Part shown: piece by piece, positions 9,815 to 56,121 of the stretch
Position numbering within the stretch: the first letter of the stretch is position 1
Layout of the letters: each line of letters begins with the position of its first letter
Assembly (NCBI GenBank): GCA_944391705.1
Contig: CALXUN010000002.1
Location: 8,279 to 72,278, forward strand
Length of the DNA: 64,000 nt
Reading direction: 5' to 3'
Origin: an uncultured Alphaproteobacteria bacterium
GTDB taxonomy: Bacteria > Pseudomonadota > Alphaproteobacteria > RF32 > CAG-239
Translations under genes and position numbers: made by a program
Notes under the pieces: model-generated
What the model was told of the DNA's origin: nothing
Database searches by the model: none
What the model saw: the letters and a program-made list of their open reading frames with translations, nothing else

Positions 9815-10115
9815 GGTATTTACCTTTCGTTTTATTTATGTTTCATATTTATATAAAAGTAAATATCTTTTTAAAAGACATGTATCAGGCTCTTCCACAT
9901 CGTCGTGCCTTTAAAATGCCTCTTACCCCTTCCCTGTCATGCCTACGCAGCCGCATTAGCGTCTGAGTACTAGGCATCCACGAATCAAAAAAACATCATC
10001 TTTACAGCTGGGTGATAAAACTTCAGTCTGCTATGATTGTGTTTCCTGCAATAGCGCCAACTTCAAAAAAATTCCGTCTGGGGATTATGTCGAAATCGGC
10101 GATGATGCAACAGAG

Positions 10116-11985: not shown

Positions 11986-12720
11986 ATGAAACATAATCTT
12001 TTTTCATTCTTATGCAGAGGGCTGCAGATGCGCCGTAACTTTTTAACGACGTGTACGATATCGGGTACACAAGGAAAAAAGTTACAAGCAGATATTGCTC
12101 TATGCGGAAGAAGCATGGTGGAGATGTTGGGGGTACTGGCAATTATTGGTGTGCTTTCGGTCGGCGCTATCTCGGGTTATTCCAAGGCGATGATGAAATA
12201 CAAACTCAACAAACAAGCCGAGCAATTAAGCTGGCTGTTTAACATTATCTATCAATACAAAGGACAGTTCGTTTTTGATAAGAAAACTTCCATGATACCT
12301 TTATTTACCAAATTAAATTTAATTGACCAAAATATGATACGTGCTGATAAAAAAGAAACAATCTACGATTCTTTCGGCAATGCCATCGCTATAGCCAACA
12401 ACAACGGCCCGAAGTTCAATGAAATTGTCTTGAATATGGGTTTACCGAAAAGCAGTTCTAACCGCTTGGCGATTTGTCAAAATGTTTTTAACGTTGCTAA
12501 AGCCCACAGTCCTTACCTGCTTTACATTCGCACCGACAACAGAGAAAGCCAAAGTGAGCCGGTAACCCCTTCCGATATGTATTACGGCGATAGCCTTTGC
12601 CAAAGTCGGGGAAATGGTGTAAATTGTATACGTTACGCAACTCTTGAAAACATTTATAATGTCTGCCAAAATTGTGATGAAATGCCAATTTGTTATTTTT
12701 CTATCACGTGGCGCATATAA
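11986..12720 (+). CDS. Prepilin-like protein (type IV pilin or pseudopilin N-terminal domain), paralog 1
   Basis: Class-III signal: ...ALCG|RSMVEMLGVLAIIGVLSVGAISGY, with Glu at +5 after the conserved Gly and a hydrophobic alpha1 helix. C-terminal Cys cluster (CQNCDEMPICY). Unusually long 40-aa leader. Terminator at 12748-12781. Confidence 0.65.
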   Translation: MKHNLFSFLCRGLQMRRNFLTTCTISGTQGKKLQADIALCGRSMVEMLGVLAIIGVLSVGAISGYSKAMMKYKLNKQAEQLSWLFNIIYQYKGQFVFDKKTSMIPLFTKLNLIDQNMIRADKKETIYDSFGNAIAIANNNGPKFNEIVLNMGLPKSSSNRLAICQNVFNVAKAHSPYLLYIRTDNRESQSEPVTPSDMYYGDSLCQSRGNGVNCIRYATLENIYNVCQNCDEMPICYFSITWRI

Positions 12721-20716: not shown

Positions 20717-21553
20717 ATGAAACCTTGGTTTTCTTTATTCTTACGCAGAATGTTGCAGATGCGCCGTAACTTTCTGACGACGTGTACAACATTAGGTACA
20801 CGAGGAGAAAAGTTGCAAGCAGATGCGACTTTTTCCGGAAGAAACGAACGACCGCAGAACCGGACAGATGCGAAGCCTTGTTTGAGCGACGTGTACAAAA
20901 TGAGTACACGAGCGAAAAGAAGGCAAACAGATGTTCGGTTATCCGGTCGTTCTATGGTGGAGATGTTGGGAGTTTTAGCAATTATTGGAGTTTTAAGTGT
21001 TGGCGTTATCTCGGGCTATTCCAAAGCCATGATGAAGTATAAACTCAACCGACAAACAGAACAAATCGGTAGTATTCTAGATTATGTTCTGATTAATTCT
21101 GATAAGTTTAATCACGATACTTCCATAGCATTTATTTCATTATTATATAAATTGAATGCCATTCCGGTGGAAATGATAAGGGAAGATTGGATCTACGGCT
21201 ATGCTTATGACATATTCGGCAATAAAGTATATCTGAATGACAATAATGATGGAAATAATATTTATTATAGTTTATCCGTTTCCATCAGTAAATACTCGCG
21301 CGAAATTTGTATGAATTTATACCAAATGGCCAAGCTCCGTTCTGCCAATTTATGGCAAACCGTGTTTAATAAAGACACCCAAAGTTCTTCCATGGAACAC
21401 ACCAACAGAGTATGGGGCGATTCTTATTGCAGCAAATCAGTTACTTGCCTCAAAGATTTAAGCTTAACACAAATGGACGAACTTTGTTCAGCATGTGACG
21501 ATTCTCAAACCTATTGTAGATTTTATATTTTATGGGGTCGGATCAAACCTTAA
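20717..21553 (+). CDS. Prepilin-like protein, paralog 2, with a duplicated leader module
   Basis: Identical mature N-terminus G|RSMVEMLGVLAIIGVLSVGVISGYSKAMMKYKLN. The 77-aa leader contains a tandem duplication of the leader module. Divergent C-terminal domain with a Cys cluster (CSACDDSQTYC). Confidence 0.6.
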   Translation: MKPWFSLFLRRMLQMRRNFLTTCTTLGTRGEKLQADATFSGRNERPQNRTDAKPCLSDVYKMSTRAKRRQTDVRLSGRSMVEMLGVLAIIGVLSVGVISGYSKAMMKYKLNRQTEQIGSILDYVLINSDKFNHDTSIAFISLLYKLNAIPVEMIREDWIYGYAYDIFGNKVYLNDNNDGNNIYYSLSVSISKYSREICMNLYQMAKLRSANLWQTVFNKDTQSSSMEHTNRVWGDSYCSKSVTCLKDLSLTQMDELCSACDDSQTYCRFYILWGRIKP

Positions 21554-44225: not shown

Positions 44226-44393
44226 TCTTCTTTCTGTTTTTTATAAATTGGTTTGCTATTATGCTATGCCAATCCTTAACAATTTTCAAACATTTTTTTA
44301 GTTTTGCATAAATAACAAAATCTGTCTTTTTATGTTGAAAAAATCAGAAATCCGGTTATGATGTAATTAAACAATCAGGAGGTGCTGATAATT

Positions 44394-44834
44394 ATGACTT
44401 ATACTGAAACCCTCGAAGCCAACGGTTATATTTTAAAACTAACCGAAGAACAGAAAATTATTTTCTTAAAAGCTCTGGCTTATATGGCAAAAATCGACGG
44501 CCATCTTGACGAAGAAGAAATCAAATACATTAAAGATGTTGCAACAAATTACCACATTACCCAGCCGGGCCGGATTTTTGAATTTAAAAACGAAGAAGAA
44601 ATTTTAAATGAAATCAAAAAGTTGGGTAACCGCCGGATTTATCTGGAACTGATTAAAGAACTGTGCCTTCTTGGACATTCCGACAGCGATTTGAGCAATG
44701 ATGAAGTTGCCTTTATCGGCAATGTCGGCAAAGCCACCGGCATTGAACTTGAAAAAGTTGAACAAATCAGCAATTGGGTCATTGACAAACTTATGTGGCT
44801 TGAACAGGGAAAAATCATTTTTGAAGACGCCTGA
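44394..44834 (+). CDS. TerB-like / DjlA-N-like domain protein
   Basis: Two helical repeats with conserved D-G/E patterns (LKALAYMAKIDGHLDEEE; LIKELCLLGHSDSDLSNDE). Start set at the ATG at 44394 after AGGAGG. Confidence 0.45.
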   Translation: MTYTETLEANGYILKLTEEQKIIFLKALAYMAKIDGHLDEEEIKYIKDVATNYHITQPGRIFEFKNEEEILNEIKKLGNRRIYLELIKELCLLGHSDSDLSNDEVAFIGNVGKATGIELEKVEQISNWVIDKLMWLEQGKIIFEDA

Positions 44835-48443: not shown

Positions 48444-48876
48444 GAAAACTCAGCCTATAAAAATCATATAAATATCGCCAGGTAGCCCAGGATTCTGTGC
48501 AGCCACGGACCTACAGTTTGACTTTTGCTCTTAGGGCATGACGAACTGAGAGGCCGTCGCACATGTTGTCACCCCTATGAGGACGCATAGCGTCCGAATA
48601 CCAGGGGTCCACAAAAACTAAAGCAATAACATTTGATTTGTGGATGCCTGATACTCACTCGCTTACGCTTGTTCTTAAGCCATGACAGAAAGGGAGAAGA
48701 GATACTCGTAGCATAAAGCGGTGTTGCAATAGATATCCCCCAGTAAACTGGGGGTTCTATAACAGCTACAAACCTTACGGTTTGACCAAGCTCGTTGGCG
48801 TGGAGCGGTGTTGTTCCAACACCTTGGCATTCAGCCCCGAGTAAACTCGGGGTTTTCTGTAAGGCAACTAAATAAA

Positions 48877-48915
48877 CCAACCCCCGCATTGGGATGCGGG
48901 GGTTGGTTTGATTTA
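48877..48915. terminator. Strong bidirectional terminator
   Basis: AACCAACCCCCGCATTGGGATGCGGGGGTTGGTTT. Confidence 0.8.
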
Positions 48916-50823
48916 TTGTTTTTTAGTTGGTGCTTTGGTTACGTAGTTGTGATTACTGTTATAATCATAACATAGCTCAAAGCATCCATCTGTAACCATA
49001 ACATATGGAACAGAATTGGGATTTGGATTTTTCTTACCGGGTGTCCAGTGGTTATCCTCAGGCTTGGTGAAACATTCATATTCAGCGGTATGGTATTGTC
49101 CATCCGGGCACAATTGACATTTGTAACAAGTGTCATTACCTGCATATCCAACTGTACTTTCATAACCATAATATGGTGAATTATAGCATTCCGAACGGTT
49201 TGTCGTAATACCAGGTCCGGTCGGACAGGTTTTGGCTTTACATTTGTAACAACTTACATCACCTGAGCCGTTTTCATTAGCTTCAATAATGCTTGTATCC
49301 AATTCCCATCCGCCACTTTGGCCGCATTCTGAAACATCTTTAACAAAGCCGTCTATGCAAATACATTTATAACACTGTCTATCACCCCGATAAGAATCAC
49401 CCAATGTTGAACTCATATTCACGCCACAGAACCTTAGCACTGAATTCATACCAAATTCGTCTGTTGCGCATGACTTAGTTTCACATTGATAACACCCTGC
49501 CTCATCGGTATCCGTACCAAGCTTCCAGCCCTTTGTTCCGGTTTTCCCGCAATCAGCTGCCGTTTTTGCATAACCATCCGTACATTGAAGCGTTACGCAT
49601 TTATAACAACCCTTAACTGTAGCGTGTTCTTGAAGCGTTTGTCCGACAAAACAGGCTTGGAGCCGATTTGCAGAATAACCGGCAGGACAATCTTTAACAC
49701 ATCGATAACATCCTGTATCGCCGGCATAAGCCGTCGAATGATATTCCGCCTTATAATCACTACGGCAAATACCTAAATCTCCGGCAGTATATCCTGTAGG
49801 ACAGGATTTGGCTGCACAAGCACCGCAAACAATTACTTTATTGCCGCTGACAACCTTTTTAGTGTATATATTCCATCCGGCGCTCCCTGAATCACCGCAA
49901 TCTTCAACTTTTTGATACTTGGAAGAAGAACCAGCCGGACACACATCATCGTCGGTTTCTTCTTGACCTGGACAATACATATAACTTGAATCAAACGGGC
50001 ATTTAACCCCGGTTGTTCCGTCATCACATTTTGTTGCCTTGACATAACCAAGGGTTGCACAATCCGTAACCGTTGTTTGCGTCACATTGCACCAATATGC
50101 TTCCAGATTAATCTGTCCTTCTTCGCTGCAGGTTTCTGCACTGCAAAGATAGCAATTATCATGACCGTTATAAACCTGTTCGACCAGCGTTGTACAACCA
50201 TCTGTCCGGGAGCTGCATTCTTCGGTCGAATAGCTGTCATCGCAAATACAATAAGGATACCAGCGGCTGCCGTCCGGTTCCTCGCAATAATCCGTACCGC
50301 TTGGTTCTTTTAAACCTCTCTCATCGCAGCTATACGGATAAACAGTTCGGGAACAAGCACATTCCTCATATCTGATAGATCCATCAGCAGGGCTCCTACA
50401 GGAATCTCCGCTGCCGGATGCATTAGTATAGTCAGCACAACTTTCATACGGATAACGAGCCGGATTGCAAATGGTTTCAGAACCGGCACAGCCGCACACC
50501 GAATTAAAAGTTCCGGTACAAATATATTTACCATTTTCCAAATCCAAAACATTATCGCTGTTACAGCTGCAACGATAATATGTTTTGTCATTATAAATAC
50601 AAGTTTGCTCCTGATAACCTTCCGGACATGGCGTTGTCCGATCATATCCCTGACATCCCGTACCAAGCCAGCTGCTGTTGTCAATACAACCGTCACCATT
50701 TAAAACGCCGGGCAAAAAGCAGACTTTGGCTTCTGCATCTGCTGCCGCGATTAGTATAACCAACAGTAAAAATTTCGCCAATGTCCGCATACTCTTAAGC
50801 CCTTCAGATAACTTGCCGTTCAT
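48913..50823 (-). CDS. Secreted, extremely Cys-rich repeat protein, 636 aa
   Basis: Signal peptide MRTLAKFLLLVILIAAADAEA. About 7 tandem modules of 35-45 aa of the form C-[PT]-x-G-[YF]...G..GCY[KRQ]C... (GCYRCVKDCPAGY, GCYKCVTLQCTDGY, GCYQCETKSCATDEF, QCYKCICIDGF, SCYKCKAKTCPTGPG, TCYKCQLCPDGQY). Own promoter and an AGGAAAG RBS. Confidence 0.7.
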   Translation of the reverse strand: MNGKLSEGLKSMRTLAKFLLLVILIAAADAEAKVCFLPGVLNGDGCIDNSSWLGTGCQGYDRTTPCPEGYQEQTCIYNDKTYYRCSCNSDNVLDLENGKYICTGTFNSVCGCAGSETICNPARYPYESCADYTNASGSGDSCRSPADGSIRYEECACSRTVYPYSCDERGLKEPSGTDYCEEPDGSRWYPYCICDDSYSTEECSSRTDGCTTLVEQVYNGHDNCYLCSAETCSEEGQINLEAYWCNVTQTTVTDCATLGYVKATKCDDGTTGVKCPFDSSYMYCPGQEETDDDVCPAGSSSKYQKVEDCGDSGSAGWNIYTKKVVSGNKVIVCGACAAKSCPTGYTAGDLGICRSDYKAEYHSTAYAGDTGCYRCVKDCPAGYSANRLQACFVGQTLQEHATVKGCYKCVTLQCTDGYAKTAADCGKTGTKGWKLGTDTDEAGCYQCETKSCATDEFGMNSVLRFCGVNMSSTLGDSYRGDRQCYKCICIDGFVKDVSECGQSGGWELDTSIIEANENGSGDVSCYKCKAKTCPTGPGITTNRSECYNSPYYGYESTVGYAGNDTCYKCQLCPDGQYHTAEYECFTKPEDNHWTPGKKNPNPNSVPYVMVTDGCFELCYDYNSNHNYVTKAPTKKQ

Positions 50824-50912
50824 ACTTTCCTATATTTTAAAGAGTATAACATAAAAGCTCAACCGTCAAGATTTTTCAAAAAAAAACAGCCATGATAATT
50901 TATCCGACCAAA

Positions 50913-51440
50913 CTAACCGTACTTTGCCTTCAACTGATAAATATATTCAATCACATCATCGCTGTCCCACTTGGCGCTGCCGCGGATACGCCCGATTTCT
51001 TCACCGTTTTTGTTAATCAGAACCGTATGCGGACTGGTAAAAATTCCCAAATCGGAAGCCACGGCCCCGTTTTCATCAACATAAAAATCGACATCCGGCG
51101 CTCCGTAACGTTTCAAAAAACGTTTTTGTTCGGCTACCGTTGCCCACTCTTCATTAGGGGAAATCAAAAGCAATTTGATGCCGTTTCCTTTTACGGCCTT
51201 ATAAAAGCCGTTAAGACTTTTAAGTTCTGCCAGGCACGGACCACAGTCGCGCGACCAGAAAACCGCCACCACAAAATCGCCTTTAAAATCCGAAAGACGG
51301 TAGTTTTTGCCGCTTTCATGAATAATTTTATGCGCCGGCGCCGGCCGCGGCTTGTCATAAATATTAACGCTGTCCTTGGCATAGGCCGGAGCCGCCAGTA
51401 AAAACAGAATAAAAGCCGCTTTCAAAACAAGTTTCAACAT
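50913..51440 (-). CDS. TlpA/ResA-like periplasmic thiol-disulfide oxidoreductase (thioredoxin fold)
   Basis: Signal anchor MLKLVLKAAFILFLLAAPAYA. WSRDCGPC CxxC active site. Start set at the ATG at 51440. Confidence 0.75.
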   Translation of the reverse strand: MLKLVLKAAFILFLLAAPAYAKDSVNIYDKPRPAPAHKIIHESGKNYRLSDFKGDFVVAVFWSRDCGPCLAELKSLNGFYKAVKGNGIKLLLISPNEEWATVAEQKRFLKRYGAPDVDFYVDENGAVASDLGIFTSPHTVLINKNGEEIGRIRGSAKWDSDDVIEYIYQLKAKYG

Positions 51441-51529: not shown

Positions 51530-51664
51530 ATGAGATATGTTTTTAAATTTTTTTCAATTCTGCTGCTTGCCACGGCAATTCTCGGCACAACCGCCTGCGG
51601 CAAGGTTTCCGCTCCCGTTCCGCTTGAAGACAGCGGCTATCCGCACAGTTACCCGCGGCGTTAA
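51530..51664 (+). CDS. Tiny putative lipoprotein of 44 aa; not in the ORF track
   Basis: MRYVFKFFSILLLATAILGTTACGKVSAPVPLEDSGYPHSYPRR. Hydrophobic signal plus a Cys with a loose lipobox. Sits immediately upstream of the vWA gene. Confidence 0.3.
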   Translation: MRYVFKFFSILLLATAILGTTACGKVSAPVPLEDSGYPHSYPRR

Positions 51665-51681
51665 ATAAAGGATATCAGACC

Positions 51682-52368
51682 ATGAATGAACAAAAAAAAC
51701 CAACTGATGATACCATTCCTTATGTCGAATTTGCCGACAATGCCAATGAACGTACCCCCTGTGTGCTGGTTTTGGATTGCTCCGGCTCCATGCGCGGTGA
51801 ACCCATAAAACAGTTAAACGCCGGCTTAAGCGCTCTGGAAAAAGAACTGAAAGAAGACATTGATGCCAGCTCACGCGTTCAGCTTTTAATCATTAAAGCC
51901 TGCGGCAAAGACGAAGCCGTCATCAGCTCGGACTGGGTTGATGCCATGAACTTTACCGCGCCGGTTATGGAAGCCGGCGGTTTAACGCCGCTTGGCAAAG
52001 CCATGGAACTGGCTTTACAGAAAATCGAGGAACAAAAATGCCTTTACGACAGCTGCGGCGTTACCTCCAAACGTCCCTGGATATTTTTAATCAGCGACGG
52101 GGAACCCACCGACTACGGCTGGGAGCAGGCTGCCGAAAAATGCCGTTATGCCCAGCAGAATAAAAAAGTTATTATCCATGCCGTCGGCACTCAGGGGGCC
52201 AATTTGGAAAAGCTGGCAAAATTTTCCCTGATGTCGCCCAAACGCTTAACCGGGCTGAAATTTACCGAATTTTTCTTATGGCTGAGCCGCAGCGTTTCCT
52301 GTATTTCCAAAGCCGCCCCGAACGCGGATGATTTGCTTGAGGACATTAACGACTGGAATGATGAATAG
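51682..52368 (+). CDS. vWA-domain protein (TerY-like)
   Basis: MIDAS VLVLDCSGSMRGEP, ...T..., ISDGEPTD. RBS AAAGGA. Confidence 0.75.
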   Translation: MNEQKKPTDDTIPYVEFADNANERTPCVLVLDCSGSMRGEPIKQLNAGLSALEKELKEDIDASSRVQLLIIKACGKDEAVISSDWVDAMNFTAPVMEAGGLTPLGKAMELALQKIEEQKCLYDSCGVTSKRPWIFLISDGEPTDYGWEQAAEKCRYAQQNKKVIIHAVGTQGANLEKLAKFSLMSPKRLTGLKFTEFFLWLSRSVSCISKAAPNADDLLEDINDWNDE

Positions 52369-53107
52369 AAAACAGAACATACATATTGTTGCCGCCAGCG
52401 TAACCGGAACATATCACCGTGCCAAAAATCTTCCCTGTCAGGATTTTCATGCTCATGCCTGCCGGGGGAACAAGCTGGTTGCGGTTGTTTCCGACGGCGC
52501 GGGTTCGGCAAAATATGGTAAAATCGGTGCCAAAACCGTTTGCAGCACTTTATGCGATATTCTGATTTCCTGCCCGCTGGACGATATCCGCCAAAAAATT
52601 ATCGACGCTTTGGAAATTGCCCGCCAAAAGCTGATATATCACCGTTTTAACAAAACCAAAAGTGAAAACGGACTGGTTGATTTTGCCGCCACGGTTGTCG
52701 GTGCCGTCTATACCGGCAGCCGCGGCATATTTTTTCATATCGGTGACGGGGCCGCCATAGCTCTGGGAGATACAGCACAAAGCACCGTGGTTTCGCGCCC
52801 GGAAAACGGTTTGTTTTCCTGTGAAACTTATTTTTTTACCATGGACGACTGGAAAGACAGCCTGCGCTTCACCCCGTTTGAAAAAGCGCAAAGCCTGATG
52901 TTAATGACCGATGGTGTGACCGGTTTTGCTTTCACCAAAGATTACGACTGCCTGGAAAACAGGTTTATAGAACCGATTAACCGCTTTTTACGGGCTGAAC
53001 CCAACCGCCGCAAAGCCGTCCGTGCTTTAAACAACACATTGGGCACGCCGCGCGCCTGCCAATTAAATCCCGATGACAAAACGCTTTTATGGGTCGGTCT
53101 GAAATGA
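52358..53107 (+). CDS. PP2C-family Ser/Thr phosphatase
   Basis: VAVVSDGAGSAKYG and FHIGDGAAIAL metal-binding Asp motifs. Start overlaps the end of the vWA gene. Confidence 0.7.
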   Translation: MMNRKQNIHIVAASVTGTYHRAKNLPCQDFHAHACRGNKLVAVVSDGAGSAKYGKIGAKTVCSTLCDILISCPLDDIRQKIIDALEIARQKLIYHRFNKTKSENGLVDFAATVVGAVYTGSRGIFFHIGDGAAIALGDTAQSTVVSRPENGLFSCETYFFTMDDWKDSLRFTPFEKAQSLMLMTDGVTGFAFTKDYDCLENRFIEPINRFLRAEPNRRKAVRALNNTLGTPRACQLNPDDKTLLWVGLK

Positions 53108-54579
53108 ATCAAAACATAACTTCACAGGAAGCGGAATTTTTGTATTTTAACGCCATTTACGGCGACGGGCATTTTGAGCGTGAAAAGCTGGGCGAACTCT
53201 TAAACAAAGGTGGTGCTGCCGGCAAAATATATCGTGATGTCATTCACCCCGGGTTGGTAGCCAAAATCTTTCATGACCGCAGCAAAAGCCACACCAACCG
53301 CCAGAAGCTGGAAGCCATGCTGCACAACCGCCCGAACATTCCGCCGATTGTATATGACGGAAAAACTTATGTACAGATTGCCTGGCCGGAAGCGGTTTTG
53401 GAAGATGACGACGGCTTTTGCGTCGGCTATCTGATGCCGCTGATTAATATGAACGAGGCCGTTTCCTTAGACCACCTGATGCAAAAGGCCGTCCGTAAAA
53501 AACTGGGGCTTTCCGAAAGTTACAGCAACCGGCTGTATGCCGCTTATAATGTGGCCTCTATGGTTGCGGCATTGCACAAATGCGGCCATTACATTGTTGA
53601 CTTGAAACCGGCCAATGTTTCCGTTTACAAAGAAAACATGATTGTTGCCATGTTTGACTGCGACGGTTTTTCCATTAAGGGCGAAAAAGGGCGTTATCCG
53701 GCAGAATTTGTCAGTGAAGAATATATTTATCCGGAAGGAATGCAGCAAAATTGTGAGGAAATGGGCGAAGAACAGGATAAATTCGCTTTAGCCGTCATCA
53801 TATTCAAACTTTTAAACAACGGCATTCACCCCTTTTCCGGCACGCCGCGCAAATCTGGCAGCGAAATGCTGACCATTCAGACGCGGATTGAACAGTATCA
53901 TTACGCTTACGGCCTGTGGCCGGATTCTTATCAGGCGCCTAATCCTTACAGCATACACAATTATTTTGATAAAAAAACTTTGGAATTGTTTGACCGTGCC
54001 TTTTTAAAAGGCCAGAAACGTCCGTCTGCCAAAGAATGGCAGGAACACATGGAATATCTTTTCCGCAATTTAAAAACCTGCAAACAAAACCCGGATCATG
54101 TGTATTTTACATCCAGAGGCTGCGGTTTATGCGCCATTGAGGAAAAATTTAAGCAGAACATGGCCGCCGTCAAAGAAGAAAAAGCCATGCCGGTCAAAAT
54201 CCGCGGACTGGAAATATCCGAGCTTTCAACCGAAAAAACCGAACGTTTAAAACAAGAAAAACGCTTGAAGTTCATTAAACTGAACAAACTGACCTTAGCC
54301 GGCATCGTGCTATATCTTTTATTTTTCGGCAGCCTGTCGTTTATCCTAAAACCGGCGAAAGAGTTTCTGACATCGGGCGGTTATGCGCTGCAGCTGATTA
54401 TGATGGCCCTGCTTGTTAAAGTATTGTATACGGCAGGAAATCGCTTACAAGCCACTCTTCCGCTTTTAAAAAACCAGTCTTTGCTTAACATGCTTAAAAT
54501 TTATGCCCTGATTAACATCATTGTCGCATTTATTATCATAAACAATCTCGGTTTTGAAATTTTCCGGCCGGCCGGTTAA
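53104..54579 (+). CDS. Hanks-type Ser/Thr protein kinase with C-terminal coiled-coil and 2 TM helices
   Basis: Gly loop GGAAGKIY, VAKIF Lys, catalytic loop YIVDLKPANV, FDCDGF (DFG-like), YPE. ATGA start-stop overlap with the PP2C gene. Confidence 0.75.
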   Translation: MNQNITSQEAEFLYFNAIYGDGHFEREKLGELLNKGGAAGKIYRDVIHPGLVAKIFHDRSKSHTNRQKLEAMLHNRPNIPPIVYDGKTYVQIAWPEAVLEDDDGFCVGYLMPLINMNEAVSLDHLMQKAVRKKLGLSESYSNRLYAAYNVASMVAALHKCGHYIVDLKPANVSVYKENMIVAMFDCDGFSIKGEKGRYPAEFVSEEYIYPEGMQQNCEEMGEEQDKFALAVIIFKLLNNGIHPFSGTPRKSGSEMLTIQTRIEQYHYAYGLWPDSYQAPNPYSIHNYFDKKTLELFDRAFLKGQKRPSAKEWQEHMEYLFRNLKTCKQNPDHVYFTSRGCGLCAIEEKFKQNMAAVKEEKAMPVKIRGLEISELSTEKTERLKQEKRLKFIKLNKLTLAGIVLYLLFFGSLSFILKPAKEFLTSGGYALQLIMMALLVKVLYTAGNRLQATLPLLKNQSLLNMLKIYALINIIVAFIIINNLGFEIFRPAG

Positions 54580-54732
54580 AATATTTTTCACACCAATCCT
54601 TGCCTAAAACCCGCAGAATAGCTATTTAGTTTCTTTAAGGAAACTATAGGTATCTAAAGTGCCTACTTTTCTTTTTGCAAAAAAACGCATAAATAAATTC
54701 TAACAGAATTTTTTAGTTTTAAGGAAAAAACA

Positions 54733-56121
54733 TTGAAAAAATTAAATCCCATTATTTTATCAGGCAAAGAAGTCCTGCCCTTAATTGAAGGCGGCAAAGG
54801 CATTAACGGCAGCAACGGATACAGCTCCGGCGCCTGGGCAAGAGAAAACTGCGTCGGCACGTTTTCGGCTGTCAGCCCGGATACACTTGACAATAACGGC
54901 AACGTTATCATCGAAACATTTAAGAAGAAAATCCGTGCCGAACGCCATGAAGAAATGGTGCAATATGCCATTCAGGGCGGCATAGACCAGGCAAAAGTGG
55001 CACATGAAGTTTCCGGCGGCAACGGCCGCATCCACATGAATATGCTTTGGGAAATGGCCGATTCCGAACGGATTATTGCCGCCATCTTGGAAGGAAGCAA
55101 AGGCCTGATCCACGGTGTCACCTGCGGTGCCGGGCTGCCTTATCATTTAGGTGAGCTGGCCTCAAAATTCAAAGTTTATTATTACCCGATTATCTCCTCG
55201 GCCCGGGCCTTTCAGGTATTGTGGAAACGTGCCTATTCCAAATGCTCGGAATATTTGGGCGGCGTTGTTTATGAAGATCCGTGGCTGGCAGGCGGACACA
55301 ACGGTTTATCCAATGCCGAAAACCCCTTAGAACCGCAGTCGCCATACAACCGGCTGGTTGAATTACGTAAGCTCCTGCGTGAACTGGGGCTTGAAAAAAC
55401 ACCGATTATCATTGCCGGCGGAGTTTGGAAATTAAGTGAATGGGAAGATTATATTGACAACCCGGAAATCGGTGACGTTGCCTTCCAGTTCGGTACACGC
55501 CCGATGATTACCAAGGAAAGCCCGATAAGTGCAGCCTGGCAAAATGTTATGATGCACGTCAAAAAAGGCGATGTCATTTTACAAAGATTCAGCCCGACGG
55601 GGTTTTTCTCCTCGGCCATTAAAAACACTTTCTTAGAAAAACTGATTGAACGTAAAAAAGGCGAAATCGCTTTCAAAAACGAACCGGACAACGAATATTC
55701 TCATGCTTTGCCCATGAATGCCAACCGTACGGTTTACATCAAACCGGAAGACGCCGAAAAAGCCGACAACCAAATCAATGCCGGATTAAGCGTTATTCAG
55801 GAAACCCCTGATCAAACGGTTGTCTTTATGAGCCAGGAAGACTACAAAAAAATGAAGCAAGACCGTGCCGAATGCGTCGGCTGTTTGTCGCAGTGCCAGT
55901 TTTCAACCTGGTCGCGCGCTAACGGTACCACCGGCAAACTGCCGGATCCGCGCACATACTGCATTCATAAAACGCTTTATGAAGTCGGCCACGGCGGCAG
56001 CGTTAAAGACCATTTGCTGTTTGCCGGCCACCAGGTTTACCGCTTTGCAACCGATCCGCTGTATCGCAACGGTATTCCGACAGTAAAAGAACTGATTGAA
56101 AAAATCAAAGTCGGCGAATAA
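54733..56121 (+). CDS. FMN-dependent NMO (2-nitropropane dioxygenase/enoyl reductase-like) family oxidoreductase with C-terminal extension
   Basis: TIM-barrel motifs GVTCGAGLPY and IIAGGVW. TTG start with an AAGGAAAAAA RBS. Confidence 0.55.
   Translation: MKKLNPIILSGKEVLPLIEGGKGINGSNGYSSGAWARENCVGTFSAVSPDTLDNNGNVIIETFKKKIRAERHEEMVQYAIQGGIDQAKVAHEVSGGNGRIHMNMLWEMADSERIIAAILEGSKGLIHGVTCGAGLPYHLGELASKFKVYYYPIISSARAFQVLWKRAYSKCSEYLGGVVYEDPWLAGGHNGLSNAENPLEPQSPYNRLVELRKLLRELGLEKTPIIIAGGVWKLSEWEDYIDNPEIGDVAFQFGTRPMITKESPISAAWQNVMMHVKKGDVILQRFSPTGFFSSAIKNTFLEKLIERKKGEIAFKNEPDNEYSHALPMNANRTVYIKPEDAEKADNQINAGLSVIQETPDQTVVFMSQEDYKKMKQDRAECVGCLSQCQFSTWSRANGTTGKLPDPRTYCIHKTLYEVGHGGSVKDHLLFAGHQVYRFATDPLYRNGIPTVKELIEKIKVGE

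Follow-up and report, generated by a model that had tools for sequence, protein, structure and literature searches.

Autotransporter passengers, phage tail fibres and polymorphic toxins share a common layout, in which a conserved N-terminal part is joined to a variable C-terminal part at a sharp recombination boundary, and a conserved N-terminal domain with exchangeable C-terminal cassettes is the classic pattern of the polymorphic toxins. Stalk-plus-tip bacterial adhesins such as Lcl are exported and extracellular; besides a constant N-terminal part, they have a stalk of repeats that varies in copy number and a tip that binds. Lcl, the Legionella collagen-like protein, is an extracellular glycosaminoglycan (GAG)-binding adhesin that recognises sulphated glycosaminoglycans (PMC11162425); Lcl_C is its C-terminal domain. 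Here we describe a gene for a cysteine-rich, predicted secreted protein that lies in a 64,000-nucleotide stretch of DNA from an uncultured alphaproteobacterium (GenBank assembly GCA_944391705.1, contig CALXUN010000002.1, positions 8,279 to 72,278 of the forward strand; the whole stretch is called the window below). The protein consists of a conserved N-terminal domain and an array of four-cysteine modules, and the array is one of several C-terminal cassettes that are exchanged within what appears to be an undescribed protein family.

The window protein resembles Lcl and the other stalk-plus-tip adhesins in this layout, and some members of its family have Lcl_C as the C-terminal cassette. However, its stalk would be made of four-cysteine hairpin modules rather than collagen triplets, its N-terminal domain has no relative in Pfam or the PDB, and binding is here a property that we infer; Lcl_C (PF07603), which would mark an Lcl-type adhesin, is absent from the window protein. 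It also shares the conserved N-terminal and variable C-terminal parts, with their sharp boundary, with autotransporters, tail fibres and toxins, and two of its relatives have, in one case, the same modules in an autotransporter passenger (P0131) and, in the other, a tail-collar domain (P0150; numbers beginning with P and L denote proteins and loci). Unlike those systems, the window protein has no beta-barrel, phage context, toxin domain or immunity gene, and the C-terminal beta-barrel domain (PF03797) of type Va autotransporter adhesins gave no match in it. Finally, the modules differ from the furin-like, TNFR and ephrin-receptor repeats (PF00757, PF00020, PF07699) and from the CXXC proteins of the Giardia variant-specific surface protein (VSP) type in that the window protein has no match to the corresponding profiles, its cysteines are spaced C-x10-13-C-x15-25-C-x2-C, its type-A signature DCG-x2-G-x2-GW is specific to the cysteine-rich family, and its host is a bacterium.

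The gene and its parts are as follows.

48913..50823, minus strand: gene for the cysteine-rich, predicted secreted protein, 636 amino acids from Met1 or 625 if the start is Met12 (50790), as defined by the open reading frame list, the cysteine count and homologs.
50728..50823, minus strand: predicted signal peptide, residues 1-32, with a predicted signal peptidase I cut AEA/KVC, read from the sequence.
49972..50727, minus strand: conserved N-terminal cysteine-rich domain, residues 33-284, with 29 cysteines, beginning with the invariant K-V-C-F-L-P-G.
49972..50061, minus strand: 'C-x2-LGY ... CPFD ... C' knot, residues 255-284, which closes the N-terminal domain; L258, G259, Y260, C266, C275, P276 and C284 are invariant.
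49111..49941, minus strand: array of seven four-cysteine modules, residues 295-340, 341-378, 379-413, 414-451, 452-488, 489-532 and 533-571.
48916..49110, minus strand: degenerate eighth module (C572, C584, C614 and C618, with a C-x3-C) and basic tail ...APTKKQ; its match to the module hidden Markov model (HMM) is marginal and its AlphaFold2 (AF2) model is of low confidence.

With 61 cysteines (9.6% of its residues), the encoded protein stands apart from all other open reading frames of the window, none of which exceeds 4.5%; it also contains much Gly, Thr, Ser, Tyr and Asp, and an identical protein (P0001) is present in a public protein collection. The N-terminus, MRTLAKFLLLVILIAAADAEA/KVCFLPG, has by eye the pattern of a Sec-type signal peptide, the small-x-small site ahead of [KR]-[VI]-C-F-L is kept throughout the family, and the sole hydrophobic segment of the protein is N-terminal (residues 12-38). 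An initial annotation of this DNA had called the product a secreted and very cysteine-rich protein of 636 amino acids, and the reading frame, the cysteine content and the putative signal peptide all agree with that description. Translation may start at Met12, the likely start given that homologs begin MRTLAKF at the equivalent position, although Met1 has the better Shine-Dalgarno sequence (AGGAAAG); the mature protein is identical from either start.

In an alignment of 16 homologs, residues 33-284 are conserved as a separate unit that is not built from modules, and nearly all of the 29 cysteines are invariant. This domain begins C35-F-L and ends D-C-x2-L-G-Y...C...C-P-F-D...C, and most database matches to the window protein span it alone, that is, 43% of the query. 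Thus, the view of the initial annotation that the protein is built from modules holds for residues 295-636 but not for the 29-cysteine domain that precedes them, and the two-part mosaic, with its conserved N-terminal domain and its exchange of cassettes, had gone unnoticed. In an AF2 model of the N-terminal domain, the mean predicted local distance difference test score (pLDDT) is 77, with values above 83 over model residues 31-170. Exactly 29 cysteines are found in this domain in 60 of 95 family members, including proteins that consist of nothing else, and P0062, P0065, P0074 and P0090 were noted for an odd cysteine count in the domain. Because 29 is an odd number, at least one cysteine should be left as a free thiol or form a bond with another molecule.

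The N-terminal domain defines the cysteine-rich family and can exist as a stand-alone protein. Its closing knot has a wider distribution, since in many distant relatives the LGY-CPFD knot follows the signal peptide alone or in tandem: there is a second architecture of signal peptide, lone knot and modules (P0035, P0056, P0058 and others), and in P0125, P0137 and P0155 the knot occurs in tandem by itself. At the other end of the domain, K-V-C-F-L-P-G is replaced by sequences like K-I-Y-W-L-P-D-Y in P0126, P0143, P0148, P0151, P0193 and P0118. Comparison of the relatives suggests that a hydrophobic motif is conserved at the mature N-terminus.

The C-terminal half is organised very differently. 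Its modules are 35-46 residues long with the spacing C-x(10-13)-C-x(15-25)-C-x2-C-x(2-4), and the degenerate eighth module (residues 572-618) closes the array, which at four cysteines per module holds 32. Two types can be distinguished, type A with C-x-DGYAKT-x2-DCG-x2-G-x2-GW-x-LG...GCY-x-C-x-K and type B with CPTGY...C...Y-x-YAGD-x2-CY[KR]C. The initial annotation had counted about seven tandem modules, and this count was borne out in two ways. A regular expression for the full module matches 8 times (7 without overlap), as against a mean of 0.04-0.10 in 5000 shuffles, and an HMM of 42 positions, built from 101 modules of distant proteins with the window protein excluded, finds seven modules (295-340, 341-377, 379-412, 414-451, 466-489, 489-532 and 533-570) for a total of 100.4 bits, while none of 200 shuffles scored above -8.5 bits. 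A self-BLAST of the window protein detects no internal repeats; consequently, what is repeated must be mainly the cysteine framework, with few other conserved residues. From an alignment of 21 sequences, AF2 predicts one beta-hairpin per module, with pLDDT values of about 75-90 for the first five and low values toward the C-terminal end. The regular framework and the predicted hairpins are consistent with structural disulfides, of which there would most likely be two in each four-cysteine module. The number of modules differs even between close orthologs, from 8 (32 cysteines) in the window protein to 10 (40 cysteines) in P0003.

That the two halves have separate histories is seen when they are compared between family members.

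Window protein and P0004: N-terminal domain 94% identical, tail unrelated.
P0004 and P0006: N-terminal domain 63% identical, tail 99%.
P0008 and P0010: N-terminal domain 96% identical, tail unrelated.
P0022 and P0032: N-terminal domain 53% identical, tail 93%.
Window protein and P0025: N-terminal domain 35% identical, tail 55%.

The jump in identity between N-terminal domain and tail falls at the knot boundary. These values indicate that the tails move between lineages independently of the N-terminal domain and that the breakpoint lies immediately behind the knot; the module array is only one among several C-terminal cassettes that can be exchanged. The syntenic locus encodes orthologs of between 279 amino acids, with an N-terminal domain only (L001), and 663, and more distant orthologs reach 1071, 1602 and 2902; where the N-terminal domain is only 36-70% identical, the flanking genes are still 75-98% identical. 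When syntenic orthologs that carry different tails (P0008, P0022, P0030 and others) were scanned against Pfam, no match was obtained, and a DUF1566-like impression of the P0008 tail was not confirmed.

Homologs with conserved cysteine positions number 40 among 5.8 billion proteins, and a HMMER search of 1.84 billion cluster representatives returned 235 at E<=1e-3 and 55 at E<=1e-30; among the relatives listed with source annotation, none carries a name or a Pfam domain. A genome scan with the N-terminal domain alignment (one genome per species) yielded 12 loci, all in uncultured metagenome-assembled genomes from human gut, rumen or reindeer. Eleven of these are labelled Alphaproteobacteria, Rhodospirillaceae or Proteobacteria. 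The twelfth, L008 (CAVBCV010000004.1), is titled 'Lachnospiraceae bacterium'; it has the same alphaproteobacterial synteny, with neighbours 81-89% identical to those of the window (vWA gene 89%, nitronate monooxygenase (NMO) gene 84%), and the contig has probably been mis-binned. Judged by these searches, the family would be one of uncultured gut and rumen Alphaproteobacteria.

Searches against known families agree with the initial annotation, in which no bacterial family had been recognised, and full-length homology to a characterised family was not found in any of them. Against Pfam at E<=1, the window protein matched only DUF7279 (E 0.02, under the cutoff), and an NCBIfam scan gave nothing significant. 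Searches of PDB sequences with the single sequence and with both profiles had as their best match alphavirus E2 (E 0.11), which was taken as noise, a Foldseek comparison of the N-terminal domain with viral structures (BFVD) reached no better than E 0.12, and PHROGs gave no match for the window protein. Literature on the lineage and on cysteine-rich proteins turned up only microbiome surveys. By these comparisons, the N-terminal domain and the module array appear to be two domains without a Pfam, NCBIfam or PDB relative.

Several familiar kinds of protein were considered and rejected. A bacterial lipoprotein would need a lipobox, [LVI][ASTVI][GAS]C, and by eye the A-K-V-C of the window protein does not supply one, as it has Lys at -2 and Val at -1; in the relatives with K-I-Y-W-L-P-D-Y, the cysteine of this position is Tyr, Trp or Ser. 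A multihaem c-type cytochrome was dismissed because none of the eight CxxC motifs is followed by His, as CxxCH would require. A phage structural protein was dismissed on account of the PHROGs and BFVD results and of the neighbours in the window, which belong to the core chromosome (MiaB, FolD, DedA and ribosomal operons).

Clues to function come from the company that the family keeps. When 77 distant relatives were scanned for domains, Lcl_C was found in 5, two of them above the cutoff of 34.9 (P0168 at 42.5 bits and P0191 at 39.8 bits), a pectate-lyase-like adhesive domain was found in P0143, and a phage tail collar domain, together with strong PHROG tail-fibre matches, was found in P0150. 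Furthermore, P0131 is an autotransporter of 2120 amino acids (PF03797, 3.5e-17) whose passenger holds at least 11 type-A modules with the signature DCG-x2-G-x2-GW...CGKC. Given that all of these settings are of an extracellular binding type, and given the exchange of cassettes, the best-supported reading is that the window protein serves as an adhesin-like stalk or binding protein outside the cell or at its surface, and the probability that we attach to this is about 0.5.

In such a model, the protein would be exported by the Sec pathway, stabilised by disulfides and composed of two parts. The conserved N-terminal domain of 250 amino acids would provide a constant function, anchoring or export, and the exchangeable C-terminal cassette would here form a rod of seven to eight four-cysteine beta-hairpin modules. 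Recombination just after the knot would swap cassettes between lineages, and the number of modules would vary as well. The tail would face outward, where host immunity, phages or changing ligands would select for its diversity.

Several points weigh against this reading. The window protein has no recognisable outer-membrane translocation or anchoring domain, neither an autotransporter barrel nor a lipobox, and consequently could stay in the periplasm. No ligand-binding domain can be recognised in its tail, and the case for an adhesin depends on the domain company of distant relatives. The probability is kept at about one half because the window protein has no recognisable anchor and its passage across the outer membrane is presumed.

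An extension of the model, which we offer as a tentative one, is that gut Alphaproteobacteria may have a surface-display system that has so far gone unrecognised, with the N-terminal domain as its constant module and with interchangeable binding cassettes as what it presents. The domain would then guide the protein through the outer membrane or attach it there, possibly by way of one unpaired cysteine, and the cassettes (four-cysteine hairpin rods, Lcl_C, beta-helix and tail-collar) would recombine between strains and thereby shift host-, mucus- or phage-facing specificity.

The gene directly upstream had also been given a role in the initial annotation, as a dedicated disulfide-handling partner.

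50913..51440, minus strand: TlpA/ResA-like periplasmic thioredoxin-fold gene, neighbour of the cysteine-rich gene, 175 amino acids from Met22 (51440), with the active site WSRDCGPC.

Like TlpA, ResA and CcmG, its product has a thioredoxin fold (Pfam Redoxin 6.5e-17, AhpC-TSA 5e-16), a CxxC site and, at the N-terminus, a segment for export or anchoring, and is about 175 amino acids long; orthologs of 173-181 amino acids support the start at Met22, and one relative carries the NCBI name 'TlpA family protein disulfide reductase'. It differs from TlpA, ResA and DsbE in scoring far under the NCBIfam equivalog cutoffs (64.7 of 230 bits for TlpA, 61.3 of 170 for ResA and 34.5 of 123 for DsbE) and in its CGPC active site, where characterised TlpA, ResA and CcmG proteins have CVPC or CEPC. 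The protein is thus best described as a generic member of the family rather than as an assigned ortholog. The initial annotation had it as a membrane-anchored thioredoxin-fold protein encoded on the same strand; the fold, the active site and the strand stand, but the hydrophobic N-terminus, MLKLVLKAAFILFLLAAPAYA, ends AYA/K and may be a cleaved signal peptide instead of an anchor.

In the proposal of a dedicated partner, the TlpA-like protein is a periplasmic reductase or isomerase that serves the cysteine-rich protein, so that the two genes are one functional unit. They do lie on the same strand, 89-122 nt apart, and TlpA is directly upstream of the cysteine-rich homolog at 9 of the 12 genome loci. 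In addition, a CGPC site, which is typical of reductants such as thioredoxin and TlpA-family proteins, could reshuffle wrong disulfides, and with an odd number of cysteines (29) in the N-terminal domain, one thiol may need to be kept reduced. However, all nine cases of adjacency come from a single clade that has synteny over the whole 15-kb region, with NMO, kinase, PP2C and vWA genes on one side and, in six, DedA and FolD on the other side or close by. At three more distant loci (L010, L011 and L012), aspartyl-tRNA synthetase or ClpB is upstream instead, four further homologs (P0025, P0039, P0035 and P0058) lie amid unrelated housekeeping genes without TlpA, and at seven homolog loci in all (L010, L011, L012, L013, L014, L016 and L017), there is no TlpA within 5-8 kb. 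Conversely, L019-L021, from three other genomes, have TlpA orthologs (49-57% identity) in the same slot, beside the block of small-lipoprotein, vWA, PP2C, kinase and NMO genes, but the genes that come after TlpA there are for a phosphoribosyltransferase and a T2SSE ATPase, and a cysteine-rich gene is absent. TlpA relatives also far outnumber the cysteine-rich family. The loci with TlpA alone and the homologs without it indicate that the conserved linkage of TlpA is with the vWA block and that the cysteine-rich gene is a variable occupant of the adjacent slot. A dedicated partnership therefore seems improbable, and with this the idea of the neighbour as a private folding factor is removed; the reductase may help to fold such proteins in a general way and may take a general part in the thiol chemistry of the periplasm.

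Three other explanations concern the cysteine-rich protein itself, and all are ranked below the preferred reading of a surface stalk or binding protein. A Sec signal peptide, yet no recognisable domain for outer-membrane export or anchoring, would also fit a periplasmic protein that is not displayed at the surface and serves as a thiol/disulfide or metal buffer or as a structural component of the periplasm; the very high cysteine content, the odd count in the N-terminal domain and the adjoining gene for a periplasmic reductase point the same way. We regard this as rather unlikely, because rapid cassette exchange and lengths of 279-2902 amino acids would be unusual in a buffer with a housekeeping role in the periplasm, an autotransporter passenger contains the same modules, related tails have domains of adhesin or tail-fibre type, and a regular four-cysteine framework with predicted hairpins fits structural disulfides. 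The sharp boundary between a conserved N-terminal domain and non-homologous cassettes that move between lineages might also mark a polymorphic toxin or a bacteriocin-like protein, in which the conserved N-terminal domain would serve delivery and the variable C-terminal part would be the effector. This is highly improbable, since no toxin domain was found in any tail scanned, the tails are instead repeats, beta-helix or lectin-like domains, orthologs that consist of the N-terminal domain alone exist, and no conserved small immunity-like gene lies downstream; in L001-L003 the next gene is 28-80 bp away. Lastly, the initial annotation had likened the modules to furin-like and TNFR repeats, and they might be true homologs of these and of the ephrin-receptor-like repeats of eukaryotes, through ancient origin or horizontal transfer. 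The 'C-x2-C-x3-5-CP-x-G-Y' spacing is similar, and there is a weak echo in three distant relatives, of which P0172 and P0182 score above and P0177 just below the gathering score of Ephrin_rec_like (PF07699), beside type-B modules. The window protein, however, has no furin, TNFR or ephrin-receptor match in Pfam at E<=1, so that the resemblance is at most one of general type; the Ephrin_rec_like match of the relatives lies in a different segment, a profile search of PDB sequences was empty at E<=10, and small disulfide-rich hairpin modules converge easily. True homology is thus also quite unlikely.

Two further features flank the cysteine-rich gene.

50834..50885, minus strand: promoter-like hexamers between the TlpA-like and cysteine-rich genes, TTGAGC-17-TAAAAT and also TTGACG ... 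TGTTATACT, followed by the Shine-Dalgarno sequence AGGAAAG; these are consensus matches only.
48873..48910, minus strand: terminator-like hairpin directly after the stop of the cysteine-rich gene, with a stem of 16-17 bp that has 9 GC pairs.

The gene had been credited with its own promoter and a strong terminator. The hairpin is indeed present and, being palindromic, reads on both strands; the hexamers are present too but are not enriched upstream of the gene, with 6 found as against 7.5 expected in shuffles. Between the stop of DedA and that of the cysteine-rich gene (window 48444-48912), there is a gap of 470 bp, as against only 28-80 bp at orthologous loci. Within it, and especially in 48713-48876, about 150 bp recur at two sites in L017 with 92% identity, and one of these sites lies directly after another gene of the cysteine-rich family and beside a Y1 transposase gene (IS200/IS605- or RAYT-type); the stretch also weakly resembles window 9920-9989. 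The gap looks like a hairpin-rich repeated element similar to repetitive extragenic palindromic (REP) sequences or miniature inverted-repeat transposable elements (MITEs), with the terminator-like hairpin at its edge. Scans of the window for Rfam families and for tRNAs gave no match.

On the other side of the TlpA-like gene, and divergent from it, a block on the plus strand (51682-56121) encodes a vWA protein, a PP2C phosphatase, a Ser/Thr kinase and a nitronate-monooxygenase-like protein, and ahead of it is a conserved open reading frame of 44 amino acids with a lipobox (LSAC; 51530-51661, plus strand). The block and TlpA are kept together in genomes down to about 50% TlpA identity. We take the vWA-PP2C-kinase arrangement to resemble the triads described for Ter-type stress systems, and a TerB-domain gene lies nearby (44382-44834). 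At L019-L021, type IVb-pilus-like genes (Bundlin/PilS pilins, T2SSE and T2SSF ATPase and platform) are found a few kb from the TlpA-vWA block; none was seen in the window. Elsewhere in the window, the open reading frames at 11986-12720 and 20717-21553, both on the plus strand, share a near-identical N-terminal stretch (...LQMRRNFLTTCT..G..G.KLQAD...) without a Pfam match and may represent a duplicated gene or a repeated element.

This is, then, a new protein family inside a familiar kind of system, that of mosaic secreted or surface proteins. The domain definition, the module HMM and the recombination boundary provide concrete targets, with uses in metagenomic strain typing, metaproteomics, studies of IgA binding and structure determination. 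With its two domains that lack relatives and its clear exchange of cassettes at a fixed breakpoint, the family is a strong candidate for the variable component of the surface of these uncultured gut Alphaproteobacteria that faces the host or phages, and it offers a handle on their host-facing biology.

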